IMG/VR virus record: IMGVR_UViG_3300044995_000318
Location: 1 to 55,635 of that record
DNA length: 55,635 nucleotides
Source of the DNA: a virus
Lineage: Duplodnaviria; Caudoviricetes
Reading direction: 5' to 3' (one strand)
Below, one piece after another: positions 2,512 to 49,867 of this stretch (position 1 is the first letter of the stretch; each line of letters begins with the position of its first letter). The notes under the pieces were generated by a model. It had not been told where the DNA came from. It was given only the letters and a program-made list of their open reading frames with translations, and did not search any database. A program made the position numbers and the translations under genes.

Positions 2512-3213
2512 GTGCCTGACGATATTCAAAATCAATTCGAAATTTGGAAATCTGATCCTTCTCCGGCTAATTTACACGGAGTTGTTCAGAAGCTTAGTCC
2601 CACAATCAACTACACATTAAGTTCGATTGGAGCGGATAACGACCCTCTTTTGCGTCAAGAAGCCTTACTTCTTGCAGGGGAAGCTGTTAAGAACTATGAC
2701 CCTTCCAAAGGAGCTGGACTACCCACATGGGTATCCCAACAGCTCATGCAGCTTCGGCGAATTAAACGATCCCTCAATTCTCCCATCAAAGTCCCGGAGC
2801 GTCACCAGTTAGACGCTATGCACATTCAGCGCATAGAAAACGAATTTATGGACAAGCATAACCGTGAACCGGATGTTCACGAATTGGCCGATGCCGCCAA
2901 AATGTCCGTAAAGCGCATCGAAAAAGTAAGAAAAGCTATGAGGAAAGTTCCTACGGAAGGAACGCTGCCTGATATTGGACAAACAGAAACCCCCTCTTTT
3001 GATGAAGAAGCTTTACGCTATGTTTATGAAGAAAGCGACTACATTGACCGTAAAATTCTTGAGCACAAAACAGGTTACGGAGGGCAGCCGGTTTTAAAAC
3101 CATTAGAGATTGCCAAAAAGCTCAATCTGACTCCTTCGCAACTTAGCCGCAGATCAGCTAAGCTTGCTTTTAAAATCAACGAGCTGACTTCAACCTTGGA
3201 ACAAGTGGCATGA
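2512..3213 (+). CDS. phage sigma70-family RNA polymerase sigma factor
   Basis: Region 2 (QEALLLAGEAVKNYDPSKGAGLPTWV), region 3 (KHNREPDVHELADAAKMSVKRI) and region 4 HTH (PLEIAKKLNLTPSQLSRR); GTG start. Confidence 0.85.
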   Translation: MPDDIQNQFEIWKSDPSPANLHGVVQKLSPTINYTLSSIGADNDPLLRQEALLLAGEAVKNYDPSKGAGLPTWVSQQLMQLRRIKRSLNSPIKVPERHQLDAMHIQRIENEFMDKHNREPDVHELADAAKMSVKRIEKVRKAMRKVPTEGTLPDIGQTETPSFDEEALRYVYEESDYIDRKILEHKTGYGGQPVLKPLEIAKKLNLTPSQLSRRSAKLAFKINELTSTLEQVA

Positions 3214-10350: not shown

Positions 10351-10421
10351 TGCAGAAAAGCTCACAACTATATCTTGCGCATAGACTTGACGAAATCAAG
10401 CATTCAACGAATATCTTAAAT

Positions 10422-25959: not shown

Positions 25960-27128
25960 CAAAAATTCACGGTCCCACAAGGATAGCGAAGGAAAAACAT
26001 GGTTATCAAATCTACATGGCTAGCCCGATTTGCCTCGAGCGAGACGGTCGTAAAGAGTTGAGGTCTAGACACTTAGCTGTGAATGCTGAAAGGTATTTTT
26101 TGATAGGTATGTATAGTAAATCAAAGGGTATTATTGATGCGGATAAGTCAGCCATGTGTATGAAGACTGGTAAAATTTATCGGGTGTCGGAGCTTTTGCG
26201 GATGCGCCCCATTAAAGAACGGGGCTTATCCATGGAACCCGATGGTGCTTATGTGACTCTACCTAGAAGGAAAGATAATGTTTTAATTAAAGATGCTAAC
26301 GGTAACTTAATCCCCGATCATCCGGGGCAAGTCGTTGGGATAGAACATCTTGATAAGAATCATCAGGTTTGGGAATTTTTACATTCCCGAGGATTTTATG
26401 ATGCACAACGTTTAGTGGATCATATGGGGGCTTCTTATTGTGAACAAGAAGCTCCCGAACAAAGAGGAGGACATTATTATCGTCGTTTAGTTAATGGTTT
26501 TAAGGATACCCCTCAAGGACGTTTGATCCTGTATGCTTATGTTGGTGGCGTCCAAGTTGGATGGCAGGCCCGTTTGTTAGAATTAATTGTTGACGACACC
26601 CACCATTTAGTATGGCATCCATATAGATCGATATGGGAAGTCTATCGTGTGAAAGAAAATGGAAATTGGGTCGTTCAGCCCGATTTTTTACCAAAGAATG
26701 ATAAAGAGGACGATTTAAAGTCAGCAAGTAAGTATAGGACTGCAGATGGGGCGCTTCGTAATAACATGCTTATGGGTTTTGATGCTTCCGTTAAATGGAA
26801 TAAAGAAAATCGTGAACCTGGTCGTCGTTTTGTTTTCTTAGCGGAAGGTCCATTAGACGCCGCTAGGTTGGGTGTTCCAGCGGTTGCTTTTATGGGAAAA
26901 TATTTAGCTCCCGAACAAGCAAAGCTGTTGACTTCCAACTTTGATACGATCATCTTTGTTCCCGACAATGACTCTGTAGGAAGAAAAGCAGTAAGTGATG
27001 TTACGAAAATGTTAATAAGAGCTAGGCACGTGATGGTATGTCCTCCGGACGATAAGTTCAAAGACGCAGGTGAAATGCCACAAGAAGTCGCAGATGAATT
27101 TGTTAAAAAGATAATAGCTCGATTATGA
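25881..27128 (+). CDS. dnaG: DnaG-like DNA primase (TOPRIM)
   Basis: GRLI...VGWQAR, KY, FLAEGPLDAA, FVPDNDSVG and KDAGE motifs. Confidence 0.85.
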   Translation: MVKESRATESMFEDVPARVKRLAEALAKIHGPTRIAKEKHGYQIYMASPICLERDGRKELRSRHLAVNAERYFLIGMYSKSKGIIDADKSAMCMKTGKIYRVSELLRMRPIKERGLSMEPDGAYVTLPRRKDNVLIKDANGNLIPDHPGQVVGIEHLDKNHQVWEFLHSRGFYDAQRLVDHMGASYCEQEAPEQRGGHYYRRLVNGFKDTPQGRLILYAYVGGVQVGWQARLLELIVDDTHHLVWHPYRSIWEVYRVKENGNWVVQPDFLPKNDKEDDLKSASKYRTADGALRNNMLMGFDASVKWNKENREPGRRFVFLAEGPLDAARLGVPAVAFMGKYLAPEQAKLLTSNFDTIIFVPDNDSVGRKAVSDVTKMLIRARHVMVCPPDDKFKDAGEMPQEVADEFVKKIIARL

Positions 27129-30100
27129 GCGAAGAAAAATTAATAACCGGGGAAGACGAAAATTTACCGCCGGGTGTTGTGAAAGTCCCTCTTGTTGTGG
27201 GGACTACTCGACGCTATGACGGTACTCTTTTCGTGGCTGGGCAGGGTCCAATGCCCGCCGATGTCATGTTTGTAAGTACGGCACTTTTGGAGGAAGAAGC
27301 GGAAGAATTTGCTGAGACATTTAGCGGGATTAAGATTAAATCTAAGCCTCGTTATTTAAAAGGTCCAGCAGGCACGATGTTTAAAGATTGTGCGTTGAGT
27401 AATGGTATTGATTTGGATCAATGTTATTACACGGCGCTTATTAAATATCTTTTGCCAAGGTCTAACCGTCTCAAGCCTACTAAGCAACAGTTGGCCGCCA
27501 GCATGCCTTGCCTTGTTGAAGAAATTGCTAAGGTAAAGCCGAAAGTGATTGTGGCCTTGGGTAAACATGTTTTTGACATGCTCTACCCGATGAAGCTGAA
27601 GCTTAGTGATATTGAGTGTGGATGGTTTTGGAGTAAGCGGTTTAATTGTCGTATATTTCCAATGCCGAATCCGGTTCAGTTAATTCTAAAACCGGATTAT
27701 TTGGAAAAGTTTCATGTGAATTTTAAAGAGCTTCGCAGGATGCTGTTGTCGCTGAAAGGCGTTGAAGTGGACACGGTTAAAACCAATTACCGGGTGATTT
27801 ACGATTCCAATGATCTCCGTACTTTGGTTCAGCAACTTAAAGACAACCAATATTCGGTTATCTCCGTGGATTGCGAATGGTCTGGAAGAAATCATGTTGA
27901 TGGAAAGTTGCGCAGCATACAGCTATGTTGGGCTCCAGGCGAAGCTGCTTATGTGCGTTTTATGGATGATCAAAAGAATTATGTTTTTGACATAAGTTAT
28001 AAAGAGGCTGGAGCTATATTAGGAGAGTATCTTAATAAACCTCATGTAAAGTATATCGGGCATCACATTTCTGCGGATTTTCCTTGGATGTACCATGTCT
28101 TAGGTTTAGAATATTACAACAAATGTTTGATGGATACGGAGTATGCTCAACAATGTATTGATGAATATTCAGGACTTGGTTTGGAACGTTTGTCGGTTCA
28201 GTACACTGATTGTGGTCGCTATGATTTAGATTTGTTGTTGTGGTGTAAGGAAAATAAAGTTTCTGAAGAAGACGGTTATGGTCTGGTGCCGGATGAGATT
28301 ATCATTCCGTATGCTTGTTATGATGTTGATGTTCCTTTTAGGTCTTATCCTTTTCTATTTGCCGAATTGGAGAAACAGGATCTTTTAGATTATTATTACG
28401 ATATTTTTCTTCCTTTTGTTACTAATATTTTTACAGATTTTACTTTGTTTGGCCTACCAATTGATAAGAAAAAATTAGATGAGTTGAGGTCTTTGTTTAC
28501 TTATGTAAGAAATAGGCTATCAGTTATTTTACAAAGAAAAGTAAAGCAAGAAGCAGAAATATTTTTAGTCAATTTTCTTAATGAAGTAAGTAATAATAAT
28601 GAAGAACAAGTAATAGAAATTTTAAATGATTTATTTTTAAACAATGTTGAAAAAGCTTTTAATTCAGCTAAGCGTTTAGTAGGAGCAGATAAAGTTTCTA
28701 AGCTTTTACCTCTTTGGAATCATTATTTAGAAGCTGATAATTTTAATATTCGTTCTGGTCCAATGATGCGCAGGTGGCTTTTTGATGTTAAAGGTATGAA
28801 GCCTATTAAATCGACAGGTAATAAAGAACGGGGTACTCCTTCGATACCTTGGGAAAAGGTTGAAACTTTTCCGCCTGATCGACAAAAAGAATATACCCCT
28901 GCAACAGACAAACAAACGTTGACTATTTTAGCTGAGCAATATCAAGATGATCTTTTGAAGTTGCTTTTGCAACTCAATGCGGTGGGTAATCTTTGCAAGG
29001 CGTTTTTGAAAGAAGCGGAAGTTGATGAGGAAGGTAATTTAATTAAAGAAAATGGTATTCATTATTGGATTGCAAGTGATGGTAGAATTCATTGTCAGTA
29101 TAGCGCTACGGAAACTGGTCGCCCAAGAACTTGGAAACCAAATTGTCTTAACTGGCCTAAATGGGTCAATGATTCGATTACTGCAGGTGTTAAAAGAGTT
29201 ATTGAATCTGACTACGAAGAAGGAGTTCTTCCAAAAGAGTTTGAACGCTATAGGACTGAAAGGATACCTAGTCTTCGATCTTGCGTAGCAGCCCCCGAAG
29301 GATGGTGCATGGTGGAGTCGGATTATCAAACCGCCGAAATACGTGGTTTGGCTTTTATATCCGGCGACGAAAGACTTATTCGTATAATGACAGAACCCGA
29401 TCCGCAGTTTGGATTTGTGCTTCTTCCAGGTGATGATAAGCCCACTATAGTTCGCCTAAATTATGCCGAAGATTGCGGAATCCCCAAGGATGCACAAATA
29501 CCTGATCTGATTATGGCTGTAGTTAAAGATGGCAAGGTTATTAGGAAAGTAAGTGAAAGTGAGTTACTAAGAAATGATGATGGAACTCTCAAGCATCCCA
29601 AGGCTGACCTTCACTGGTCGCTGGCGGAAATGACTTACGAAAAACCTCGTGAGCTCATGAACCCGGACAAGCATAGGAGTGCAGCCAAAGTGGGTAATTT
29701 CAGTTCCGCCTATGGTGCTACAGGTGCGACGTTGGAAAGAAAGATTGAAGCGGATACAGGTATCAAACCGGAAAAAGGAACTGGTGATAAGTTGTTGAAA
29801 GCTCTTGCTGCAAGACAACCTATTGCAACTTCGTTTTTGTTGTCATTGGAGGAAGCTCCTATAAATCCAGGTTATTTAAGAGCAGCTAGTGGTAGGATTA
29901 GGCATTTCAAAACTCATCCTGAATATGTTTCCGATAAAGTTAGCTATAAGCTGAAGAAAAGCCTACATAGCTCAATGGGTCGTGAAGCTCGTAACTTTTA
30001 CTTTCAGGAATCGGTAGCCGCAACAGCCGCCCGAGCCGCTAATAAATTAAATGATTACTTCAAAGCAAATAACATGCAGGCACGTGTAGGCATCGTTTTG

Positions 30101-30298
30101 TATGACTCGATTGTTACATTCTGCCCTATGGAAGAAAGGTTTAAGGTAATGGAACTTCACCAACGTTTCATGGTGGACGAAAATAAATGGACTTACCACG
30201 GTCGGGAAATGTCATACCCGATCGATACAGATTTGGTTTTCGCGTGGTCGTGGAAACCAACCAAAGAAGAAAAAGAAATACTAAACAAAAGGAACTAA
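27125..30298 (+). CDS. polA: family A DNA polymerase with N-terminal UDG-like domain and 3'-5' exonuclease
   Basis: UDG family-4-like N-terminus; exonuclease motifs SVDCE, GHHISAD and YACYDV; TETGR; motif A SDYQTAEIR, motif B RSAAKVGNFSSAYG, motif C LYDS. Confidence 0.92.
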   Translation: MSEEKLITGEDENLPPGVVKVPLVVGTTRRYDGTLFVAGQGPMPADVMFVSTALLEEEAEEFAETFSGIKIKSKPRYLKGPAGTMFKDCALSNGIDLDQCYYTALIKYLLPRSNRLKPTKQQLAASMPCLVEEIAKVKPKVIVALGKHVFDMLYPMKLKLSDIECGWFWSKRFNCRIFPMPNPVQLILKPDYLEKFHVNFKELRRMLLSLKGVEVDTVKTNYRVIYDSNDLRTLVQQLKDNQYSVISVDCEWSGRNHVDGKLRSIQLCWAPGEAAYVRFMDDQKNYVFDISYKEAGAILGEYLNKPHVKYIGHHISADFPWMYHVLGLEYYNKCLMDTEYAQQCIDEYSGLGLERLSVQYTDCGRYDLDLLLWCKENKVSEEDGYGLVPDEIIIPYACYDVDVPFRSYPFLFAELEKQDLLDYYYDIFLPFVTNIFTDFTLFGLPIDKKKLDELRSLFTYVRNRLSVILQRKVKQEAEIFLVNFLNEVSNNNEEQVIEILNDLFLNNVEKAFNSAKRLVGADKVSKLLPLWNHYLEADNFNIRSGPMMRRWLFDVKGMKPIKSTGNKERGTPSIPWEKVETFPPDRQKEYTPATDKQTLTILAEQYQDDLLKLLLQLNAVGNLCKAFLKEAEVDEEGNLIKENGIHYWIASDGRIHCQYSATETGRPRTWKPNCLNWPKWVNDSITAGVKRVIESDYEEGVLPKEFERYRTERIPSLRSCVAAPEGWCMVESDYQTAEIRGLAFISGDERLIRIMTEPDPQFGFVLLPGDDKPTIVRLNYAEDCGIPKDAQIPDLIMAVVKDGKVIRKVSESELLRNDDGTLKHPKADLHWSLAEMTYEKPRELMNPDKHRSAAKVGNFSSAYGATGATLERKIEADTGIKPEKGTGDKLLKALAARQPIATSFLLSLEEAPINPGYLRAASGRIRHFKTHPEYVSDKVSYKLKKSLHSSMGREARNFYFQESVAATAARAANKLNDYFKANNMQARVGIVLYDSIVTFCPMEERFKVMELHQRFMVDENKWTYHGREMSYPIDTDLVFAWSWKPTKEEKEILNKRN

Positions 30299-37596: not shown

Positions 37597-38526
37597 ATGA
37601 GTAGTTGGACTGATGAATCATTTACAAATGGTTTTGAGTTTGATTTTGAAAATACGTCTCCTGCTCCGAAAGAGTTCGAAACTAATAAAACGGATCCAGA
37701 TCAAAATACTCCTTTTTGTGTAAATAGCGTTAAATTTGAAGAAGAGGCGGCACCAAAATTATTACCTATTCGCTGCCCTGTTAAAACTGCTTATTTGTAT
37801 AAATGGGATATAAAAGTAGGGGATAATAAACTTGGTTCTAACGAGTGTGCTGTAATTTGGGATAAGTATTTGGATCAAATTACGCCATCGTGTTTAGAAA
37901 TATCGGTAGGTATGATACATGCTTACGATGGCGTACATCGGTTTGTTCCTGCTAAAAATTGGGATCCTCGATCTTTACCTTCGTTGCAAACATTAAGATA
38001 TAATGAAAACCCTCAAGGAGATTTTCCATTGGGGAATGTAGGCGGTTTGCATTGTATATTAGCAAATCCAATTCCTGGGTTTCTTTTATACGATGATAGC
38101 CTTAATTATAATCCGTATTTGTGCACGCGAAAAATTTTGACTGGTAATCAAATGGCCAAAGCCGTTAGTTCAGGGAACTGCCATTTTGATTGGGTGGCTC
38201 CTCGTTTATTAGTTGTTTGTGAAGGCGGAGATTTGAAAGACATCGTTAGCGGCAAAGGTATGAAAATATTATTAGATTTACCATGCCCGATGTCGATATA
38301 TTCTTTTAGCGAAACCATGGAAAATGAAAACATATCGGAAATTGCAACTGTGGGAGATTTGTGGGGGAGTTTTAGAGAAATTATGAAACGCTATTCTGGA
38401 GCTTATTTGGCTTTAGGTGGTGTACCCGATTATGACTGGTATGCGCTGAATACTTCGGATGATTTTAAGTTTGGAAGGGAAAATGCCTTCGCGCTTAATC
38501 AAATCCGATGGGCAGCGCAACACTAG
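37597..38526 (+). CDS. hypothetical protein
   Basis: 309 aa ORF with ATG start. Confidence 0.75.
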   Translation: MSSWTDESFTNGFEFDFENTSPAPKEFETNKTDPDQNTPFCVNSVKFEEEAAPKLLPIRCPVKTAYLYKWDIKVGDNKLGSNECAVIWDKYLDQITPSCLEISVGMIHAYDGVHRFVPAKNWDPRSLPSLQTLRYNENPQGDFPLGNVGGLHCILANPIPGFLLYDDSLNYNPYLCTRKILTGNQMAKAVSSGNCHFDWVAPRLLVVCEGGDLKDIVSGKGMKILLDLPCPMSIYSFSETMENENISEIATVGDLWGSFREIMKRYSGAYLALGGVPDYDWYALNTSDDFKFGRENAFALNQIRWAAQH

Positions 38527-38539
38527 TCATAAGTTGTCG

Positions 38540-38570
38540 AAAACACGCAGGCATACCCTGCGTGTTTTTT
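38540..38570 (+). terminator. intrinsic terminator (possibly bidirectional)
   Basis: AAAACACGCAGG-catac-CCTGCGTGTTTTTT. Confidence 0.8.
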
Positions 38571-38587
38571 AGCTATTATGTCCAAGC

Positions 38588-38616
38588 TTGCTTACGCAGG
38601 TGTGGTTATATATTAT
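38588..38616 (+). promoter_or_regulatory. putative promoter upstream of the split rpoB
   Basis: TTGCTT-17 nt-TATTAT, containing GTGTGGTTATATA. Confidence 0.5.
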
Positions 38617-38623
38617 AAATTAT

Positions 38624-41600
38624 ATGCCTAATGACGATAGTGATGATATTAAACCTCCTGGAGTAGAATTAATTGATCCGGAAGATTTTCCTACTTGGCG
38701 GCGTCGCATTTATGATGCTGTCAAAGAAGAGATGACCTCTGTTTTTCCACAATCTTACGGCGGTATTCGTTTGGAATTGCACGATGTGCATTATGCTGAT
38801 CCGGAAGACTACTCTTTGCATGAGCAAAAGAAAGCTTTACTGGAAGACAAATTTTTGGCCCGTCGTTTGCGCGGAACTATTAAGCTTTTCAAAGAGGACG
38901 ACAACACTCTTTTAGAAGAAAAAACAATGACGCTGATGCGTGTGCCTTATCTTACCGACAGAGGCACAATTATTCACGGGGGTAATGAATACACCGCAGC
39001 CCGACAGACCCGACTTCTTCCTGGAATCTACACTCGTAAGCAAGACAACGGACATTTAGAAGCTCAAGTAAACCCTAAAAAAGGAACTGGTCCTGATTTT
39101 CGAATAACATTTGAACCAGATACCGCACAATATCGTTTGAAAATTCAGAACTCTAATCTTCATCTTTATTCGTTATTAAAAGATTTAGGAGTTCCAGACG
39201 ATGTTTTAGCGACATCATGGGGTCCTGAAATACTTGAGGCTAATAAAAGTAAATATGACGCTCGTGTATTTAATAAAGCTTATGAGCGTCTCGTTCCTAA
39301 AAAACTGCAAGTTGTTGATGCTGATAACCAGCAGAAAGCGCAAGCTATTAAGGAAGCTTTAGAAGCTATTAAAGTTACAAAGCGCGTAGTTCGTAAAACT
39401 CTTCCTAATGCTTTTGATTTAACGAAATCGGCGGAGTGGCGTGCACGTGCTGTAGGACGTGAGTTATTTGAAAAATATGCAGCTAGTATTCCATTCGAGC
39501 CCGATCTGACCCCGGATGAAATGCAGGATATTTATAATGCTTTGTATGCTGGGGTTGGTCCTAGGTTGGCTAATATGGAAAAATGGCCATCAAGATGGTT
39601 TGTGGAAGGTTCAGATCCATTAGGATGGGTTGAATGGTATTTTAAATACCATGCAGGGCGTAGGCATGAAGATGACGCCAGACAAATCATGCGCTGGAAA
39701 AAATTTAAGGCGCGCCATGGTGCAGCTTTTGTAAAAAATCCTACGCCTAGACGTGCTTATGCTTTACGTGCTTGGGCAATTGATCCGTTAAAACTTTTAC
39801 CTAAAGAAAAGAGAGAAGCTTTTGCTAAAGAAATGGAGGAATACAAAGCTAAAAAGGAATCTGAATATAGACTTAATAAAGACGCATCTGATTCTGTTTT
39901 TGGCGAAAATAAACGTTCTGTGCTTAATAAAGCCGATCTGCAGCTCATTGCTCAATTTTTGAATAAGGAGCATCAAGCTGGTATTGATTTAAATATGAAT
40001 TATTATGAATTGGCAGAAGCGATTGAAAACTTTTTAAGAACGCAAGTTGGTCTTAATCCAGAGCTTCTTAATGCAGCGCTGAACTATCCAGCTATTAAAA
40101 AAGCGTCCGTTTATTCTCCGGAAGAAGTGGTGCATGAAGCTGGCATTTTGGTTCTTGAAAAGCTAGCTCGCTATGGCGCAAGTGTTTTATTTAAACAACC
40201 TAATGGAAAATATCTTCTCCAAGAAGAGCTACCCAATAAATGGACCCCAAAAGAAAAAGTTGGCAAGCTTCGTCCTGCGGGAGGCAATAAATCGAAATCG
40301 GATGCCAATTTAAAGGAAACGATTGTTCGAGAAATTGAAGAAGAGTTCGGATTAGATCCGGAAAAAACTAAAGATAAGATTCGTTTACTAGGTTATATAA
40401 GAAACGGAGAGCTTGCAGGATCGGCTCTTTTTGAGATGGTGGATCACGGTTTAAAACCGGGGATTTATCAGGCTACTAATAGTAAGCATGAAAAAATTAA
40501 GCTGGTGGAAGCTGATTTGGATGATCCAAGGTATATTGGGGTTAAACCAGAGCAGCTGCGTAGATTTGCTAAAAAAGAGCATCGCACAGTTGAAACTAAA
40601 GACGGTAACCAAGAAGTTGTTAAATATGCTTCGGAGTCTGTTTGGGTTTGTCCACACTGTGGAACAGAGTTGGATGAACATTCATGTTCGTTTTTGAATG
40701 AACATGAGATACAACATGAAAAATGTGGTGGTGTCATAGCTACACCCAATTTGCAGGATGATGAAGAAGATAAAGAAAAAGAAAAAATAAAAGAACGTAA
40801 TTTGCTGGCAGCTAGCGCGTTGGCCGGTATTGGCGGGGCTGGATTGATTTATGCAACTAAAAATCCTTATGGTGATTTAGGTAAAGAATCGCCAGGCATT
40901 GAAAAATTTCTTATTTCGTCCAACTCTTTTCCAGATGAATGGAGTCCTGATTTTCAACCTAAACCTTTTTTGAATGATTATCTGATGTATGGTTCGGCAG
41001 CTATGCGAGCTAAGTATTACGACATGGATGTTATTGACTATGTCAAAAAACTTAGACAGGGCATAGCCCAAATGAAACCCGATTCTCAATGGGGGTGGAA
41101 AGACTCAAAAGTTCCTGTTCCTAAAGTTATTGCTGATTACTTAGATCCAAATGATCCGGTTAATCGTAAGTATATTGAGTTCGATAACAAAGGCAGGATT
41201 TCAAAAGCTGAAGACTCTGCTTTGCATTATCTTGCTTTTCGAGCTGGACCAATTCCTGGGTATTTACAGCTATGGCATGAAAACGGCGCAGACATAACAA
41301 CTCTTAATAAAAAAATTAATGAATGGAAATCTACGTTGGCGAACCCTAATGACGCTAACTTAAATGAAAATTTTTATTTCGCTTTTGATGATTATGTAGC
41401 CAAGACGGATCCAAAATTTTTCAAATATAAACAAAATATGGATGTATCTATTGGAAAAGATGCAAGATCGGCGGCTAAAGTTTACGCAAGTCTTGGCGGT
41501 TTTGCCAGAAACGCTATTACAACTTTTCCAAGAACTGTAGGCTGGATTTTGGCGGCTGCTGGAGCTGGTGGTCTTGGTTATTGGCTTTGGCAAAAATGGA

Positions 41601-41968
41601 AAAAGAAGAGAGATAGAAAAAAAGAAAACGATCACTCCGAAGATGTCATTCCTGCCAGCGAGGTTATTGGGGACGAAATTGTTGGAGAAGTTAAGATGGC
41701 TAGCATTTTACAAGGGGTTGACATTTATAATAGAATTGTGGACCCTAAAACGGATCTCAAACCTATTGTGGAATCTTTATCGAAGCGTAAGGAATTCAGA
41801 GAAGTTCCTTACCCAGGGTTTGTGGTTCGAATGGCGCTTAGAGACAAACTGCGAAACTGGAATTCTGACACCAACTCTGAGTTAAAAGAGCAAATAAAAC
41901 AGTATCAGCATAAAGATAAACTACTTAATATGCTGTCAGCCAACGCCGATGCGTTCGAAAATCAATGA
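38624..41968 (+). CDS. rpoB: RNA polymerase beta N-terminal fragment fused to accessory domains (Trp/Arg-rich domain, NUDIX hydrolase, Zn ribbon, hydrophobic helices)
   Basis: MRVPYLTDRGTIIHGGNEYTAARQTRLLPGIY aligns with RpoB iPlMTdrGTFIINGtERVIVSQLhRSPGvy; Nudix box GGNKSKSDANLKETIVREIEEEFGL; CPHCG...HEKCGG. Confidence 0.78.
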   Translation: MPNDDSDDIKPPGVELIDPEDFPTWRRRIYDAVKEEMTSVFPQSYGGIRLELHDVHYADPEDYSLHEQKKALLEDKFLARRLRGTIKLFKEDDNTLLEEKTMTLMRVPYLTDRGTIIHGGNEYTAARQTRLLPGIYTRKQDNGHLEAQVNPKKGTGPDFRITFEPDTAQYRLKIQNSNLHLYSLLKDLGVPDDVLATSWGPEILEANKSKYDARVFNKAYERLVPKKLQVVDADNQQKAQAIKEALEAIKVTKRVVRKTLPNAFDLTKSAEWRARAVGRELFEKYAASIPFEPDLTPDEMQDIYNALYAGVGPRLANMEKWPSRWFVEGSDPLGWVEWYFKYHAGRRHEDDARQIMRWKKFKARHGAAFVKNPTPRRAYALRAWAIDPLKLLPKEKREAFAKEMEEYKAKKESEYRLNKDASDSVFGENKRSVLNKADLQLIAQFLNKEHQAGIDLNMNYYELAEAIENFLRTQVGLNPELLNAALNYPAIKKASVYSPEEVVHEAGILVLEKLARYGASVLFKQPNGKYLLQEELPNKWTPKEKVGKLRPAGGNKSKSDANLKETIVREIEEEFGLDPEKTKDKIRLLGYIRNGELAGSALFEMVDHGLKPGIYQATNSKHEKIKLVEADLDDPRYIGVKPEQLRRFAKKEHRTVETKDGNQEVVKYASESVWVCPHCGTELDEHSCSFLNEHEIQHEKCGGVIATPNLQDDEEDKEKEKIKERNLLAASALAGIGGAGLIYATKNPYGDLGKESPGIEKFLISSNSFPDEWSPDFQPKPFLNDYLMYGSAAMRAKYYDMDVIDYVKKLRQGIAQMKPDSQWGWKDSKVPVPKVIADYLDPNDPVNRKYIEFDNKGRISKAEDSALHYLAFRAGPIPGYLQLWHENGADITTLNKKINEWKSTLANPNDANLNENFYFAFDDYVAKTDPKFFKYKQNMDVSIGKDARSAAKVYASLGGFARNAITTFPRTVGWILAAAGAGGLGYWLWQKWKKKRDRKKENDHSEDVIPASEVIGDEIVGEVKMASILQGVDIYNRIVDPKTDLKPIVESLSKRKEFREVPYPGFVVRMALRDKLRNWNSDTNSELKEQIKQYQHKDKLLNMLSANADAFENQ

Positions 41969-42666
41969 GCATGACTATTGAAGAGATTCAGAAGCTTTTA
42001 ATAAAGGCAGGTACTGTTAAACAGCCTGTTCGGGCGATTCCTATTAAAAGCTTTCCAGACGACGATGACGATGAGTTTACGTCGGTCGGTCTAAATGGGG
42101 TGCTGGCGGCTACAGAAAAGTTATTAGCAGTTAACCGTGGTTTGATTCCTACAGACAGTCGGGATAGCTTGAGATTTAAGTCATTTCATAGTCCTCCTGA
42201 CTTGCTTAGAGAGCGTATTCGACTTGATGCTAATAAAACACGACTGTCTATTTTAAGAAGAGCCGCCAAAACAAAATCCCTTAAAGCGATTAACCCTTAC
42301 GCTTTCGATAATTACACAGAAGGTTTTATTATTAATAATCCATTGGTGACCCCTCTTGAAGAAATTAACCCTATGCACTTAGTTGAACAGGCTAGGAGGT
42401 TCACTCAAATGGGACCTGGTGGTTTAGGCTCTACTGAAGTTATCACTGAGGATGCGCAATCTCTAAACCCTTCTCAATTTGGTTTTTACGACACAATAGC
42501 TGGCCCCGAATCTGAAAAAATTGGCATTGATACACGATTGGCTTGGGGTACTAAAATAGGTTCAGATAAAAATATTTACAGCAGGTTTTATGATCGCCGA
42601 AAAAAGAAATTTGTTTGGTTGAACCCTGAACAAGTTGCCGAACTGACCATGAAATTGCCTGATTGA
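41965..42666 (+). CDS. rpoB: RNA polymerase beta middle fragment (fork/rifampicin-pocket region)
   Basis: TDSRDSL (RpoB DDIDHL), LEEINPMHLVEQARRFTQMGPGGL ([24 protein letters not shown]), SQFGFYDTIAGPESEKIG (THYGRVCPIETPEGPNIG). Confidence 0.85.
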   Translation: MSMTIEEIQKLLIKAGTVKQPVRAIPIKSFPDDDDDEFTSVGLNGVLAATEKLLAVNRGLIPTDSRDSLRFKSFHSPPDLLRERIRLDANKTRLSILRRAAKTKSLKAINPYAFDNYTEGFIINNPLVTPLEEINPMHLVEQARRFTQMGPGGLGSTEVITEDAQSLNPSQFGFYDTIAGPESEKIGIDTRLAWGTKIGSDKNIYSRFYDRRKKKFVWLNPEQVAELTMKLPD

Positions 42667-42698
42667 CGTATTTTTAATTTTGATTACTATAATAACTT

Positions 42699-43070
42699 AT
42701 GAAAATTAAAGTTCGTAATATTAGTCAAATTAAGCGAGTTTTTGGTTTTGACAGGAAGCAAGTTTTTGAACTTGGCGTTGGGGTCGTTGCTGGGGTTGAA
42801 CCCAATGAAGAATCTTTAAAAAACATTGAAAGGTTTAAAGCGGATGGCCTCATTGCCGTTGAAGACGCAGAAGCAAAACAAGAAGTTGTCGAAGCTTCCC
42901 CAGTTATTCCTGAGCGTAAGTCTCATGATCCTATTTCTGATTTGAAATCGGAAAAAAAGCCATACGCTAATAAAAATGAGTCTAGGCGTAAGAAAGAAAA
43001 AGTTACTGAATCCGAAAAAACAGAAGCTTTCGTTGACAGCTCTGAGGCTGTCGTTGATAATAAAAATTGA
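42699..43070 (+). CDS. hypothetical protein with charged low-complexity tail
   Basis: ATG downstream of TTGACG...TATAAT. Confidence 0.7.
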   Translation: MKIKVRNISQIKRVFGFDRKQVFELGVGVVAGVEPNEESLKNIERFKADGLIAVEDAEAKQEVVEASPVIPERKSHDPISDLKSEKKPYANKNESRRKKEKVTESEKTEAFVDSSEAVVDNKN

Positions 43071-44524: not shown

Positions 44525-44685
44525 TTAAAAATGCTGTTGTTAAAATTGGAAAAACGCCTGCTGTTCAAGGAGGTGTTTCTGAAGATTATATTGAAGGAGA
44601 AGCTTCTTTGTCTAATGCTCCTGTTAAATCCTTATTAAAGGTTGCAAAAACTTTGGATGTTTCGAATAAAAAGGATAAAAAATGA
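44521..44685 (+). CDS. small protein (54 aa) not in the ORF track
   Basis: MIKNAVVKIGKTPAVQGGVSEDYIEGEASLSNAPVKSLLKVAKTLDVSNKKDKK*; ATGA overlaps at both ends fill the gap exactly. Confidence 0.7.
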   Translation: MIKNAVVKIGKTPAVQGGVSEDYIEGEASLSNAPVKSLLKVAKTLDVSNKKDKK

Positions 44686-46541
44686 GTAATTTTTTAAATC
44701 AGTATAATTTTGATTTTGATCGACTTATTGGGAGTAGGAAGTTTTCTAATCCTTTTTTGATGCATTCAAACGAATCGTTTCCTTTGCAGTTGGAAACGGC
44801 AATGGATTTTTGCTTGTTCCTTTTCTTTCTTAACCCTGAATATCGGCAAGCTTCGCTTCGCGTGATAGCGCATTTCATGACTGATTTAGAGTTTGGCAAA
44901 GAAGGTTCTATTGAGGAGCAAAATGAAACTTATGATTTTTTAAAAGACACTTTGGATATAATGGGAGCTTTACGATCTTTAGGAGAAGATTGGGCCGCTT
45001 ATGGTAATGGGTTTGCAAGAATTGCTTTTCCTTTTAACCGTTTACTTAGAGATAGAAGGGACGGAAGAATAAAAGATTGGGATATTGGAATGTTTGGGAA
45101 TCATACTGCATTTGATTTGCAGTCAATGAAATACATAGTCCCTGATCCTGTTGAAATGTCCAAAGGGGTTCCTATACATCAAGCAAAAAAAGTCGAATTT
45201 GATTTTTATGATAGAAAAAGTTTAGACCGTTCACGCATTAGTATTGTGCGCATAGATCCTCGATATGTTACTTTGCAACATAGTATGCGTAACGGCGTTA
45301 CTCGAGTAATAGAGACTTTTCCGCCGGATTTCGTTGCTTCTATTAAAAGAGGAGACATGTGGCAAGTAGATGCTACACCTCGTGCAGTTTTAGAAGCTAT
45401 TCGAAATAACGAAGACTTTTTGTATAATGCCGATGAAGTTTTTCATTATAAAGCTCCTACTGTCATGGGAATTTCTAATAATGGATGGGGGCTGCCTGAA
45501 ACAATTGCTAATTACCGACTGATTCATCAATTGCAGGTTTACCGTAAAATTGATGAAGCTGTTGGGCTTGATTATTTAATGCCTTTCCGCCTTTTTACGC
45601 CGAATATCACTGATAGTGTCGGCAGTAATGTTCAAAACCTTTTAATGTCACAATGGACAAGCAAAATTAGCAACATGATCAAAGCTCGTCGGGCTGATCC
45701 TTTTGCCATGCATGCGCTACCTTTCCCTGTAAATTATCAAGAATTTGGCGGAGAAGGTAAACGTTTGGTGCTTAAAGATTTAATTGAGTACAGCACAAAC
45801 AATATGTTGGACGCCATGGGTTATCCAGCGGAACTTTATCGTGGTTCTTTACAGGTGGCCCAAATACCTACTACCCTTCGGTTGTTTGAAAATAGATTTC
45901 ATTTTATTTTTCACAACAATAATAAGTTTGTTCGTTGGGTCGCTACCCGTGTGCAGGATTATCTCGGGCTTCCCCGTATTATTCCTTTTCTCGAACGTCC
46001 TTCTTTGGCAGACGATATGGAAGAAAGAGCGATTTACCTTCAGATGGCCGCTGGCGGGGAGATTACCCGGAAAAAAGCCTACAAGCCTTGGGGTATTACC
46101 GATCCGGTGGCAGAAGCTATCGAACGTCAGCGCGAAGACTTGGAAATTCAAAAAGAAATTTCCAAATTGCAAGCCGCTGCGCAACGAGAAGCACAAATCG
46201 GTTCAGGAAACGATCTTGCGGCAGCTCAACAAGCGGAGCAGCAGGCGGCGCAACAAGCCGCCAATCAACAAAACGGATCCGCGCAAGGCGGTCTTCCGTT
46301 GGGCGGGCTCAGCGGAAACGGTGGTCCTGTTACCCCGCTTACCATACAGCGCGAGGCTCAGGAATACGCCCTGCAACTGGAAGGTATGGACATCGGACCT
46401 AGACGCCGCATGCTCGATCAGATCCGCGTTTCTAATCCGGTGCTCCATGCGGCCGTCATGCAAGAGCTCAGGAATTTAAGGTCCAGTAACGAAGCTGCTG
46501 GTAGAGAAATGGCTCGGCAACAACTTAGACAACAACAATAA
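44682..46541 (+). CDS. probable portal protein
   Basis: 619 aa; portal-like segments LGEDWAAYGNGF, VFHYK...GWGLP and LDAMGYPAELYRG; Gln-rich tail; heads a virion-like gene block. Confidence 0.65.
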   Translation: MSNFLNQYNFDFDRLIGSRKFSNPFLMHSNESFPLQLETAMDFCLFLFFLNPEYRQASLRVIAHFMTDLEFGKEGSIEEQNETYDFLKDTLDIMGALRSLGEDWAAYGNGFARIAFPFNRLLRDRRDGRIKDWDIGMFGNHTAFDLQSMKYIVPDPVEMSKGVPIHQAKKVEFDFYDRKSLDRSRISIVRIDPRYVTLQHSMRNGVTRVIETFPPDFVASIKRGDMWQVDATPRAVLEAIRNNEDFLYNADEVFHYKAPTVMGISNNGWGLPETIANYRLIHQLQVYRKIDEAVGLDYLMPFRLFTPNITDSVGSNVQNLLMSQWTSKISNMIKARRADPFAMHALPFPVNYQEFGGEGKRLVLKDLIEYSTNNMLDAMGYPAELYRGSLQVAQIPTTLRLFENRFHFIFHNNNKFVRWVATRVQDYLGLPRIIPFLERPSLADDMEERAIYLQMAAGGEITRKKAYKPWGITDPVAEAIERQREDLEIQKEISKLQAAAQREAQIGSGNDLAAAQQAEQQAAQQAANQQNGSAQGGLPLGGLSGNGGPVTPLTIQREAQEYALQLEGMDIGPRRRMLDQIRVSNPVLHAAVMQELRNLRSSNEAAGREMARQQLRQQQ

Positions 46542-46585: not shown

Positions 46586-46816
46586 ATGTCACAAATAAAA
46601 GAACCGGAAATCGTAAGAGTAGTGCGATTAATTCAGAAGTCCTTTCTTGTCAAACCGAACGAATTTTCAGAGAATGAACCTAAAGGACTTCCTGAAATGC
46701 CGGGTAACGAAAATCATACTGACCCGGATTACCCTACTCGTTCAACATGTCCGGAAAAACCTCTTTGGCAAGCTTGTGACACTATTGCCGGTTCTGGAGG
46801 AGGGGCTTCGTTATGA
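46586..46816 (+). CDS. small hypothetical protein
   Basis: ATGA coupling to the next gene. Confidence 0.6.
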   Translation: MSQIKEPEIVRVVRLIQKSFLVKPNEFSENEPKGLPEMPGNENHTDPDYPTRSTCPEKPLWQACDTIAGSGGGASL

Positions 46817-47592
46817 CGTTTAATAAAATTAACAATTTCCCTGGAGTAAACCCTCCCGACGCAAAAACTTGGCAACAGATTTTAGCGGAAGACCCTATAT
46901 TTAGGGCTAATAATCCTTTGTTGGCTATTCAATATAGTTCGTATCCTTTTCAATACGAAAACGATTTTGTATATAGATCAGGGCGTAAAACTCGAGAAGG
47001 TTTAAAAAATTTTATAAGGAATTCGAAAATTCACGACGCTATTAACCAAGGCCCTATTCCCGGAGCTTTGCTTGTCGGAGCTTTAGCTGCCGCTGCTGGA
47101 GGTTTAGGTGGATCTTTGGCTAATGTCGGTCTTAATGCGTATAGTAAAGTTACCGGAGATCGTAAAAAACGTATAGACGCTGTTAGAATGGCTTTAATGT
47201 TGGGTTTACTTGGAGCTGGCGTTGGTGCTTATAGTGGTTGGATGAATCAATCCATGAACGAGTCCATGAGTAAATCTTCCGGTTTTCGAAATTCTGATAA
47301 TTGGCGAGATAACGATCCTTATCAGATTATTATGGAAGCGTTACGGGATTCAAAAACGCTTTCTTTTAACGAGCAAGCTCAATTAATGAGGGGCGTTTCT
47401 CAATTGTCGCCAACGCAGGCAGCTGCTTTAGCCCGTCAAATTAAAACAGCAGCAGGCGCAGCAATTGGTGCTCTTGTGGCAAGATTTTTGGCTGGGGCTG
47501 GATTAGGAGGTATGGTTTTGGGTGGATTAATTGGAGGAACTTTGGCTAAATCATTAATGGTCCGAAGAGATTCTTTTGGACGAGCTTATTAA
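46813..47592 (+). CDS. putative virion protein with glycine-zipper hydrophobic helices
   Basis: GALLVGALAAAAGGLGG, GLLGAGVG and GAGLGGMVLGGLIGG. Confidence 0.65.
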   Translation: MTFNKINNFPGVNPPDAKTWQQILAEDPIFRANNPLLAIQYSSYPFQYENDFVYRSGRKTREGLKNFIRNSKIHDAINQGPIPGALLVGALAAAAGGLGGSLANVGLNAYSKVTGDRKKRIDAVRMALMLGLLGAGVGAYSGWMNQSMNESMSKSSGFRNSDNWRDNDPYQIIMEALRDSKTLSFNEQAQLMRGVSQLSPTQAAALARQIKTAAGAAIGALVARFLAGAGLGGMVLGGLIGGTLAKSLMVRRDSFGRAY

Positions 47593-48163: not shown

Positions 48164-48611
48164 TATGGACGAAAATTTAAACAACATAGAGGATTTTATC
48201 GATCAGCCTGCGGTGATTAATGGGCATGGTGTGCCTTCGCAACGTAAATCAATACCTAAAACTATTGAAGCTAATGCCAGTAAAGAAGAGGCGCAAGATT
48301 TTGTTCCTATTTCAGAGAGTAACTTAGATGATGAATATAGTGATACGCCTTCTATAGTTGATCAGCTTGAGAAAAAGCCAGACTCATGTTTGCCCGGACC
48401 TCCTAGATGTAAAATTTTTAAGCTCAATGGCGATGGCCAAGGCGAAATGGCGTATGATAAATTTATGGCAGATACGGTTCCTTTAGGAGCTCCTAAAATT
48501 GTTATAATTTCCGAACAAGAACAATTTTATGAGGGTTCTTGGATTGTCAAAGTTGTTTACTTTCCTGTACGATATAAAAAATTGGTACCCAGTAAGGAGA
48601 ATAGAAAATGA
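48156..48611 (+). CDS. hypothetical protein
   Basis: Overlaps both neighbours. Confidence 0.7.
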   Translation: MSSMDENLNNIEDFIDQPAVINGHGVPSQRKSIPKTIEANASKEEAQDFVPISESNLDDEYSDTPSIVDQLEKKPDSCLPGPPRCKIFKLNGDGQGEMAYDKFMADTVPLGAPKIVIISEQEQFYEGSWIVKVVYFPVRYKKLVPSKENRK

Positions 48612-49867
48612 ATGAGCGTGACAAACAAATTTTGAAAAAATTTATTTTAGGAGGAGCTTCTATTGGAGCAGGTACGGCTCTTATTACTTCTCTTTTGAAT
48701 TATATGGGTCGTTTAAAAGACCGCACTAAAGAAGACTCTGGCCAAGATGATGAAACTCTTTATATCAATATTCCTACTCAAAAAGAGGCCAGCGTTTTAA
48801 ACACTGGTGCTGCAATGGCGGCAGGTGCTTTAGCCTCTATGGGCAGTTACGCTTTAATAAGACGTTTATACACTGAAATGCTTAAAAGAGAGTTACAGAA
48901 AGAAGTTGATGAAGCGCAGCAGATTCATTTGCAAGCTCTTCAAGAAGAAGCCGAAAGAGAATCTAAAAAGGCGGCGTCCACCAAGCAACCTGAAGGAAAA
49001 CCTCTTGGCGTTTTAGAAACTGTAACTTCAATTCCGGTGGCCAGTGCTTTACTTTTGGCTCTTGCTTCGGGTGTCTTGACCAACCACATGTTGGACAAGA
49101 CTTTTCCTGCTATTGAGAAACCTAAGTTTAAACGCCCTCGTCGCATTGTTCTGCGTGAAGTTCAAGTTAATAAAAAAGATAACGAGAAGGCCGATGCGCT
49201 CGCAGTGACAGAAACCAATCCATACGCAAATACTCCTATAAAGGAACAACAGAAAGTTGCTACTTTTGTTGGTGACGAACTCGATGGCCTAGATTATGTG
49301 GCAAACATCGTCATGAGCCAGCCCGGCTTTGATCGTAAATCGGAATTGCCTGATCTTGTAGGCGCAGTTGCTTCTGGCAGGGCTAATGAATTTTTTAAGG
49401 TGGCTCATGAACTTGGGCATGACGCAGCTTTTTCAGTTATTAAAGGCGCCTCGGATGTGCTTAATGACAACAATCGTGTCATGGCGATTGCTGCTACTTT
49501 ACGTTCTCCTTTAGTTGGCCCGATCGCCCAAACTATGGTGGCTGCAGAAGCTTTTGATATGTTCCCCAACCATTGCAAGATGGCTCGTTATTTTGATGAG
49601 ACGACAGAGAAAGCTTTATTTGCACTTGCTTGTTGGGCTGGGGCTTGTGTGAAATCGTCAGCTGTTAAATCTGTTGGTGCGGTCGAAAAAATTGATCCTG
49701 CTTTATTGGAAGAAATAAAGAAAATTATCGAAACTTCCGATCTGCCCGACAGATTTGAGCAGGAAGATTCTAATAATAAAAAACCAAAAAATGAAGAAGG
49801 TTCAGAAGATTCAGAAGAGCCTGACTATGATGATGTTATTGACATAGTTATGAGCGGTCAAAATTAA
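48608..49867 (+). CDS. putative virion protein with three hydrophobic helices and K-x-A motifs
   Basis: AAGGAG SD; QKEAS, KKAAS, QKVAT and IKGAS; acidic tail. Confidence 0.65.
   Translation: MNERDKQILKKFILGGASIGAGTALITSLLNYMGRLKDRTKEDSGQDDETLYINIPTQKEASVLNTGAAMAAGALASMGSYALIRRLYTEMLKRELQKEVDEAQQIHLQALQEEAERESKKAASTKQPEGKPLGVLETVTSIPVASALLLALASGVLTNHMLDKTFPAIEKPKFKRPRRIVLREVQVNKKDNEKADALAVTETNPYANTPIKEQQKVATFVGDELDGLDYVANIVMSQPGFDRKSELPDLVGAVASGRANEFFKVAHELGHDAAFSVIKGASDVLNDNNRVMAIAATLRSPLVGPIAQTMVAAEAFDMFPNHCKMARYFDETTEKALFALACWAGACVKSSAVKSVGAVEKIDPALLEEIKKIIETSDLPDRFEQEDSNNKKPKNEEGSEDSEEPDYDDVIDIVMSGQN

Follow-up and report, generated by a model that had tools for sequence, protein, structure and literature searches.

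We found that a bacterial-type RNA polymerase (RNAP) beta subunit is encoded as two separate pieces in a 55,635-nucleotide stretch of viral DNA (Duplodnaviria; Caudoviricetes; IMG/VR record IMGVR_UViG_3300044995_000318, positions 1 to 55,635; hereafter the window), and that about 850 amino acids (aa) of unrelated modules lie between them. The first piece, beta1, opens the open reading frame (ORF) at 38624-41968 (P0001, 1114 aa), and the second, beta2, makes up most of the ORF at 41965-42666 (P0002, 233 aa). The two pieces are colinear with an uninterrupted beta, the modules between them vary among related phages, a short motif, K-x-A-[S/A], is enriched in the interval, and the remaining polymerase subunits are encoded in complete relatives. 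We lean slightly toward a reading in which a fragment of a virion RNAP acts as the carrier of a polyprotein that would be cut by a head protease.

A translated search (tblastn) of the window with the 1525-aa protein gp206 of Salmonella phage Arash returned two matches, one of residues 25-262 to 38717-39415 (E 3e-18) and one of residues 270-471 to 42100-42669 (E 1e-15), and a protein of Vibrio phage D69 matched the same two pieces with its residues 25-262 and 262-459. Since these are the only two matches, they are adjacent, and nothing else of either protein matched anywhere in the window at E below 6, the break in beta is exact: P0001 aa 32-264 and P0002 aa 38-233 align to neighboring parts of the Arash and D69 proteins (25-262 and 262/270-471), and the inserted part consists of P0001 aa 268-1114 together with a 37-aa leader of P0002. 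A sequence-only reading of this DNA had placed the end of the RpoB similarity near 39400 and its resumption in an ATGA-coupled gene ending at 42666, and the searches bear out both points. The two genes are translationally coupled through the ATGA overlap at 41965-41968, which we read directly. P0001 starts at the ATG at 38624; an upstream TTG at 38588 is a less likely start, since relatives begin with MPNDD...-like residues. The parts of the two genes are listed below.

38624..39424, + strand: beta1, the N-terminal piece of RNAP beta (aa 1-267; first part of the protrusion plus a small lobe), from tblastn and profile A3.
39425..39487, + strand: junction after the beta homology (aa 268-288), holding K268-S-A-E and K284-Y-A-A-S, from the motif scan and relatives.
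39488..39877, + strand: Trp/Arg-rich all-alpha domain (aa 289-418), from homologue searches and AlphaFold2 (AF2).
39878..39889, + strand: K419-D-A-S at a module border, from the motif scan.
39890..40096, + strand: helical linker module (aa 423-491), from homologues.
40097..40108, + strand: K492-K-A-S at a module border, from the motif scan.
40109..40621, + strand: NUDIX hydrolase domain (aa 496-666), from Pfam and homologues.
40622..40633, + strand: K667-Y-A-S at a module border, from the motif scan.
40634..41692, + strand: helix-core-helix module (aa 671-1023), from homologues, AF2 and hydropathy.
40649-40732, + strand: CxxC...HxxC ribbon within that module, from the sequence.
40802-40858, + strand: hydrophobic Gly/Ala helix 1 (19-residue hydropathy 1.61).
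41537-41590, + strand: hydrophobic Gly/Ala/Trp helix 2, followed by a Lys-rich tail (19-residue hydropathy 1.08).
41693..41704, + strand: K1024-M-A-S at a module border, from the motif scan; predicted local distance difference test (pLDDT) score below 50.
41705..41968, + strand: C-terminal 87-aa module (aa 1028-1114) and stop codon, from ORF reading.
41965..42075, + strand: variable 37-aa leader of beta2 with the acidic run DDDDDE, from alignment A4.
42076..42666, + strand: beta2, the rest of the protrusion plus the fork (Rpb2 domain 3; P0002 aa 38-233), from Pfam PF04565, tblastn and profile A4.

Profiles built from the two pieces recovered solved bacterial beta subunits, with a best E of 6e-10 for beta1 (profile A3, covering E. 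coli beta 51-215) and an E of 2.7e-12 for beta2 (profile A4, covering 423-571), and all 48 and all 40 of their respective PDB matches are named as plain beta subunits. Given this coverage, the cut falls between E. coli beta 215 and 423 (Arash 262-270), at the exit of the chain from the lobe, from which it runs back to the protrusion. Beta2 ends where the catalytic part would begin. Pfam recognizes RNA_pol_Rpb2_3 (PF04565) in P0002 at 25.3 bits against a 21-bit cut-off (E 1.7e-5) and does not recognize the beta1 part of P0001; PHROGs offers no family for P0001 and one unnamed family for P0002. Both pieces are well conserved, with mean column identities of 65% for beta1 and 58% for beta2 and with the fork motifs GPGG and GPES invariant (alignments A3 and A4). 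Beta1 is 92% identical to its counterpart at the related IMG/VR locus L003 and 44-58% identical in 13 more distant relatives (below, L numbers denote related IMG/VR loci, G numbers the genomes of relatives, and P0006, P0007 and P0008 related proteins).

Modeling of the two fragments as a complex, a check that the sequence-only reading had proposed, predicted that beta1 and beta2 pack together, with an ipSAE interface score of 0.81 compared to 0.00 for the best of three controls; the mark used is reached by 58 of 80 solved complexes and by 2 of 110 mismatched pairs. At least 90% of contacts recur between runs, and the partners have a pLDDT of 72 or more. Because solved structures exist for relatives of the protein that the two chains make up, this pass may reflect resemblance to those structures, and we take the model as likeness rather than proof.

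The window represents a genome that is 30% complete according to CheckV, and this explains why the catalytic part of beta (betaC) and beta' are missing from it; Pfam detected no catalytic beta (Rpb2_6, PF00562) in the contig, in line with the sequence-only reading. We searched five relatives with the Arash protein, four of them 94-100% complete and one 68% complete. Beta1 and betaC (Arash 460/492-1107/1126) are separate genes in all five, and beta2 and the N-terminal part of beta' (beta'N) were matched in the four that are near-complete. In one relative, betaC and beta'N share an ORF. The earlier proposal that beta is assembled from at least three polypeptides thus holds in this clade, given the separate betaC gene in every relative examined. 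The betaC matches at G003:C1:134345-136246 and G004:C1:10249-12192 contain one or two in-frame TAG codons; to judge by the ORF tables, these matches probably just extend across gene borders, with TAG recoding as the other possibility. In addition, the conserved part of relatives' betaC (L026 and L027, PDDDEDVD) and of beta2 (DDDDDE) begins right after a short Asp/Glu run, which may be an assembly or packaging feature of the fragment N-termini.

We then asked how the split and its contents are distributed among relatives. A scan with the beta2 alignment yielded 45 loci, 42 of which hold both pieces, with 32 distinct intervals. Beta is split at 39 of these 42 loci and unsplit at three (L083, L085, and L086), where single ORFs of 1459-1491 aa include the DFDGD site of beta' and are the most distant of the set, at 34-39% identity. 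Likewise, in a set of 5.8 billion proteins, unsplit forms occurred at 35-42% identity only, and closer relatives of great length were mostly beta2 plus an intein or beta2 plus an N-terminal extension. Relatives with an uninterrupted beta, which the sequence-only reading had suggested looking for, therefore exist (Arash gp206, the D69 protein, L083, L085, and L086). Given that unsplit forms occur only among the most distant relatives, the data fit a model in which beta was split once, in an ancestor of the clade, and the gap was filled afterwards.

At the split loci, between 125 aa (no cargo, L051-L055) and 1405 aa separate the beta1 homology from the beta2 homology. The content varies, and so does the way in which it is encoded: it may follow beta1 in the same chain, precede beta2 in one chain (the 603-aa protein of G003 is an example), or be spread over small genes of its own. 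NUDIX domains occur in L006, L007, P0006, and P0007, an inorganic pyrophosphatase lies in the L007 interval, P0006 carries a GNAT domain, L006 carries a GH108 lysozyme with a peptidoglycan-binding domain, and the L023 interval holds a separate Zn-peptidase ORF; DUF5661 is also among the recognizable modules. The same passengers can ride on different polymerase pieces: in P0008 (1646 aa), an N-terminal extension of about 800 aa, made up of a NUDIX domain, a Trp/Arg-rich domain, a ParB-like stretch, and a Zn ribbon, precedes a beta'N fragment. To judge from these sequences, the gap between beta1 and beta2 is a hypervariable cargo bay. P0008 also contains an intein at the catalytic Asp motif of beta'N, and K-x-A-S-like sites lie between the domains of its extension.

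Insertions of another kind were seen within the polymerase pieces themselves. In many relatives, beta2 holds an in-frame insert of 0.4-2.1 kb with LAGLIDADG domains at or near GPESEK (P0002 residues ~166-183), as at L014:481-2157, L020:4009-5799, and L015:6864-9698 and in many proteins of the large set; these are almost certainly inteins. The commonest length among the longer beta2 homologues is about 550-610 aa. Beta1 at L066:2331-4463 is interrupted in frame by about 1.3 kb close to residue 145, in the conserved GxYTR region; this insert may be another intein.

All the sub-domains that the sequence-only reading had described in the P0001 tail were found where it had placed them, although the NUDIX domain of this copy falls below the Pfam cut-off (17.6 bits, E 0.004, against 21.1). 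Homologues 57-62% identical to it score 21.1 (L006), 21.6 (P0006), and 25.6 (P0007) bits. Compared with the consensus G-x5-E-x7-R-E-U-x-E-E-x-G-U, its Nudix box (40280-40354) keeps RE-x2-EE-x-G-[LI], its first Glu is replaced by Asp, and its spacer is longer by one residue; the same variant is present in five of the six aligned copies. The helical linker ahead of this domain recurs in several relatives at 39-43% identity (81% in L045), where it precedes different cargo, and it is also present in P0006 and P0007.

The Trp/Arg-rich domain is a widespread phage module. It has 98 homologues of up to 611 aa at E <= 1e-3, many of them stand-alone proteins of 130-140 aa, and elsewhere it is fused to 2'-5' RNA ligase-like, pyrophosphatase, LigD_N, or NUDIX-plus-kinase domains. 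Ten positions are invariant in alignment A1 (W36, G49, W50, W53, G60, D66, Q69, R72, W73, and W99), and AF2 gives a confident all-alpha fold (pLDDT 87.5). Foldseek found no PDB match for it at E <= 0.001. The best VIA match, the C-terminal domain of mimivirus R596 (Z 5.4, rmsd 5.3, 109 aligned residues; next match 3.3), was set aside because such scores are untrustworthy for helical folds, and an assignment as DUF6321 was rejected with an Atlas score of just 0.78. In Pfam, 9 of 49 members weakly match DUF4880, which covers the N-terminal region of FecR, but even the best (E 0.0029) falls short of the cut-off; we treat this only as a lead for sigma binding.

The helix-core-helix module comprises an alpha-rich core at about aa 781-961, with pLDDT above 90 (68 for the whole model), bracketed by the two hydrophobic helices. 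Among 1.84 billion representatives, 16 are related to it, some of them stand-alone proteins of 346-373 aa with the same layout. Foldseek found nothing for this fold, and the best VIA match, a HEPN toxin (Z 4.6), is unconvincing. The 87-aa module at the C-terminus of P0001 was found solely in the near-identical L003 and L045. The Trp/Arg-rich domain, often seen beside RNA-end or nucleotide enzymes, and the helix-core-helix module are common in phages and have no assigned function; both are likely to be effectors of early infection.

K-x-A-S occurs four times in P0001 (K419, K492, K667, and K1024), each time at a module border, against an expectation of 0.43, and at least four copies were found in a fraction of 0.0008 of 5000 shuffles of the protein. 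We extended the count to 41 distinct interval proteins from 15 loci (18,221 aa), leaving out six loci (four duplicates and two without beta1). K-x-A-[SA] occurred 56 times in this set, compared to 13.4 +/- 3.4 in shuffles and a maximum of 25 in 500 of them, a figure that is no probability, since relatives share motifs by descent and the shuffle test overstates their independence. Control patterns in the same proteins were at expectation, with 10 reversed motifs against 13.8 and 17 R-x-A-[SA] against 15.6. A hydrophobic residue is favored two positions before the Lys, giving hydrophobic-x-K-x-A-[S/A]. Codons vary among the six motif sites of P0001, so the constraint is at the level of the protein, and we reject the idea that a repeat in the DNA gave rise to the motif. 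Of the border motifs listed in the sequence-only reading, the K-x-A-S sites do lie at borders, while its EKLA falls inside the conserved NUDIX fold and its TKSA reads K-S-A-E.

The motif is also found where a removable leader would end. In separate cargo ORFs and in three beta2 orthologues, it lies 6-30 residues from the N-terminus, and most relatives have K-x-A-S-W at the junction after beta1 plus one or two further K-x-A-[SA] sites. Arash gp206 itself begins MPKSAS, and the D69 protein begins MPKKAS; in each of the three unsplit beta ORFs, of about 1470 aa, K-x-A-[SA] occurs only once or twice. Among 31 Arash coding sequences scanned, 23 of the 30 motifs fall in five proteins (gp220, gp222, gp223, gp225, and gp242), the first four of which are encoded directly ahead of the capsid gene, and hardly any motifs occur in the tail genes. 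In the whole genome of G003, we counted 82 motifs against 43 reversed ones, a rough background only, as the crude, greedy ORF calls missed beta1. Two other ORFs of the window are rich in the motif, 10350-11468 (four K-x-A-S in 373 aa) and 48608-49864 (three in 419 aa); their G003 orthologues have five each, and both ORFs are candidate scaffold or internal head proteins.

We consider hydrophobic-x-K-x-A-[S/A] a candidate head-protease specificity. It could aid the prediction of head-packed proteins in a poorly annotated phage group, and since it is shared with Arash, a cultured phage, it can be tested on existing material. In the text available to the literature searches, no phage protease with a K-x-A-S motif was found.

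Nearly all genes of the window are on the + strand, and they include a sigma-70-family factor, a large terminase, SbcCD-like, DnaB-like, and RecQ-like proteins, a primase, a UvsX-like recombinase, and a portal protein. The window shares synteny with the 64-141 kb region of G003, a complete relative of 184 kb. Three features outside the split genes bear on the polymerase.

2512..3213, + strand: sigma-70-family factor (Pfam Sigma70_r3, E 4.8e-8; PHROG 351, E 5.4e-12).
38541..38570, + strand: GC hairpin and T run resembling a terminator, then an AT-rich stretch that resembles a promoter (sequence reading).
44682..46541, + strand: portal protein (BLASTP to Arash portal gp204, 24% identity over 457 aa, E 6e-46).

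The sigma factor is likely to be the specificity subunit of the phage RNAP, and the beta1 gene probably opens a transcription unit at the terminator- and promoter-like stretch. The portal gene lies 2 kb downstream of P0002, which places the split beta genes in a head-gene neighborhood, as in Arash.

The closest annotated relatives of the split beta are Arash gp206 and D69 VPHD69_0261 (1525-1527 aa; the latter annotated as hypothetical), which contain the whole of beta and the N-terminal half of beta' and end just past the Asp triad. They resemble the genes described here in being colinear with, and 25-29% identical to, beta1 and beta2, in lying near the portal gene, and in the presence of a sigma factor. 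However, their beta is uninterrupted, fused to beta'N, and free of cargo, whereas that of the contig phage is spread over at least three genes and carries about 850 aa of cargo at the first cut. According to the available text on Arash particles, mass spectrometry detected gp206 more than any other protein, and gp216 (beta') and the sigma factor gp10 are also present (PMC10585845).

Split polymerases are known from phage heads. According to the available portions of two papers, the phiKZ-like virion RNAPs ("group 1" of Iyer et al. 2021) have a beta encoded in three pieces (PMC7824862), and in SPN3US the head protease gp245 trims head and ejection proteins at A-x-E and the head holds a five-subunit RNAP (PMC10052503). 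These systems are similar to our proposal in that a multisubunit polymerase is packaged and ejected, beta comes in three pieces, and a prohead protease trims at a short motif. They differ in that the phiKZ-like enzymes are very divergent and work without sigma, whereas the contig phage encodes a sigma factor and its pieces match ordinary bacterial and cyanobacterial beta subunits in the PDB; for these reasons, we assign the enzyme to the Arash/D69 lineage rather than to the phiKZ group. The motif also differs (A-x-E in the phiKZ-like phages, K-x-A-S here), and the fused cargo described in the accessible text on the phiKZ-like enzymes is an HD domain on betaC in Bacillus phages only (PMC7824862).

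A second parallel is offered by the polyvalent proteins. The available portions of Iyer et al. 2017 describe fusions of N4-type virion RNAPs to metallopeptidase, lysozyme, and ART domains and regard InPase, NUDIX, and GNAT modules as packaged (PMC5512222); that text held no mention of a multisubunit beta or beta' as a polyvalent carrier. As with P0001, a polymerase part is joined to several unrelated effectors in a virion-gene setting, processing into units has been proposed there, and the domain pool is the same as that of the interval cargo (InPase, NUDIX, GNAT, lysozyme, ParB-like, and peptidase). The N4 polymerase, in contrast, is a single-subunit enzyme whose processing is ascribed to an embedded peptidase (in polyvalent proteins, a zincin-like MPTase or assemblin-like domain), while P0001 carries a multisubunit beta fragment and no peptidase domain. 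P0001 has at least five modules after beta1, and the portal gene is 2 kb away.

Internal proteins of phage T4, and Alt, are made with a capsid-targeting leader that ends in a protease motif and is removed by gp21. The packaging of Alt (PMC5512222) and the roles of T4 propeptides (PMC10052503) are covered in the accessible parts of the same papers. The short N-terminal motif leaders of separate cargo genes in our clade resemble these leaders of head-packed, injected proteins, but the motif differs, and most passengers here are fused to the polymerase fragment where those of T4 carry a leader only. Within the literature available to the search, no bacterial-type beta fragment carrying fast-changing passengers was described, nor a polymerase split point serving as a hotspot for cargo exchange. 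As far as those sources go, the arrangement combines two known themes, head-packed split multisubunit polymerases and N4-based polyvalent injected proteins.

Judging by the mass spectrometry of Arash particles, the split polymerase may be packaged in the virion, and the motif statistics, the border position of the sites, the short N-terminal leaders, and the clustering in Arash head proteins are the basis for the proposed cleavage at K-x-A-S. The sequence of events that we propose, in which packaging, cleavage, a dedicated protease, and the activities of the cargo are what we infer, would run as follows. The contig would be about one-third of a ~170-210-kb tailed phage encoding a bacterial-type RNAP (beta, beta', and sigma), with the catalytic part of beta as a third gene elsewhere in the genome. 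The 126-kDa precursor would enter the prohead through its polymerase part, and the head-maturation protease would cut it at hydrophobic-x-K-x-A-[S/A] module ends. Freed beta1 would then join beta2, betaC, beta', and sigma in a virion polymerase. Injected together with the DNA and the released cargo enzymes, this polymerase would transcribe early genes in the host. The NUDIX cargo might act on host nucleotides or RNA caps, and the hydrophobic module, like the GH108 lysozyme in a relative, might act on the envelope.

A bolder extension, which we regard as a long shot, is that the hydrophobic module and the polymerase piece remain linked or re-associate, so that the ejected polymerase is anchored in the host inner membrane at the mouth of the ejection channel. 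Transcription would then help to pull in the 170-210-kb genome while neighboring cargo (NUDIX here, lysozyme in relatives) clears the way, and the split would be a docking site coupling ejection to transcription.

Several observations weigh against the proposed cleavage and packaging. Pfam S77 and S78 head proteases were absent from the contig, from three complete relatives, and from Arash, a result of little weight given that an S77 control also found nothing. Pfam at E <= 1 on 13 unassigned ORFs found nothing, a PDB sequence search with the two ORFs after the portal gave no match, and an Atlas search with the ORF at 46813-47589 reached 0.84 at best, with unnamed viral clusters only. Motif sharing by descent, noted above, counts on this side too. 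Related patterns are mildly raised as well (KA-x-[SA], 26 against 13.8; K-x-[SA]-A, 23 against 13.6), and part of the motif signal may thus reflect the Lys/Ala-rich composition of linkers. The site right after beta1 in P0001 is K-S-A-E rather than K-x-A-S, and the P0002 leader is without K-x-A-[SA], which three relatives' leaders have. The contig itself holds neither betaC nor beta'. Arash is a distant relative, at 27-29% identity, and its particles are soft evidence for a virion location, because the list of detected proteins includes a primase, helicases, and ribonucleotide reductase; abundant nonstructural proteins may contaminate the particles, as its authors allow in the available text (PMC10585845).

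These observations could also be accounted for if P0001 is an uncut 126-kDa subunit that displays its domains on the polymerase surface, much like the lineage-specific insertions of cellular beta, with the hydrophobic helices tethering the polymerase to a membrane and K-x-A-S serving as a preferred linker. The break maps to a region, in or near the lobe, where beta accommodates large insertions, and an HD hydrolase is fused to a beta fragment in Bacillus jumbo phages according to the accessible text of PMC7824862; the lack of a detected protease and the raised Lys/Ala patterns point the same way. Yet the same modules also occur as separate genes with short N-terminal leaders ending in the motif, in Arash the motif is concentrated in proteins of head assembly, which are unrelated to the polymerase, and the cargo varies by phage and moves among the ends of beta1, beta2, and beta', which fits passengers better than parts of a polymerase. 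We consider an uncut subunit, the main rival reading, unlikely, if by no means negligible. Another reading, in which beta1 and beta2 are remnants that no longer form a polymerase and were exapted as a handle for packaging or structure in an ejection polyprotein, would agree with a contig lacking catalytic beta and beta' and with a beta1 that Pfam fails to recognize in P0001. The contig is incomplete, however, and betaC is matched in five of five relatives and beta'N in four of five; moreover, the column identities and invariant fork motifs given above, the predicted packing of the pieces as in beta, and the encoded sigma factor make the loss of polymerase function quite improbable.

Two further explanations concern the origin of the layout itself. 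An intein, homing-endonuclease, or intron cassette in the beta gene comes to mind given the LAGLIDADG inteins in beta2 of many relatives and the intein in beta' of P0008, but the interval holds enzymatic cargo and varies in length from 125 to 1405 aa, and P0001 ends in a stop codon, with a second ATG start for P0002 at 41965-41968, and holds no Hint, intein, or endonuclease domain in Pfam (nor a peptidase domain at E <= 1), as the sequence-only reading had anticipated in arguing against an intein. A mobile element is, in our view, very improbable. Metagenome contigs can in principle be chimeric, and an assembly chimera, which has no specific support beyond that, is scarcely credible here: Logan contigs from two runs (depths 24.6 and 120.5) cover 38400-42900 unbroken and with no joints, although both runs come from one sample, possibly the contig's own source, and so are not independent but only a second assembler agreeing. 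Locus L003, from another data set, shows the same layout (1125 + 233 aa, 92-96% aa identity), an eight-member protein cluster matches the P0001 tail at 94%, and beta is split at the 39 related loci. Polymerase-borne, protease-released cargo remains the reading that we slightly favor.

Finally, 12 listed runs holding all or part of 38600-42700, none of them an RNA run, are labeled as hot-spring or microbial-mat metagenomes; four of the 12 hold at least half of the sampled words, and runs X5 and X9 include only parts of the region. Elsewhere in the window, the ORF at 27125-30298 encodes a 1057-aa family-A DNA polymerase with a 3'-5' exonuclease domain and an N-terminal fusion to a uracil-DNA glycosylase superfamily domain. 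The contig end (53033-55284) encodes an ATPase (PHROG 1297) followed by a DUF2201 metallopeptidase plus VWA-like protein, and the two form a conserved pair.

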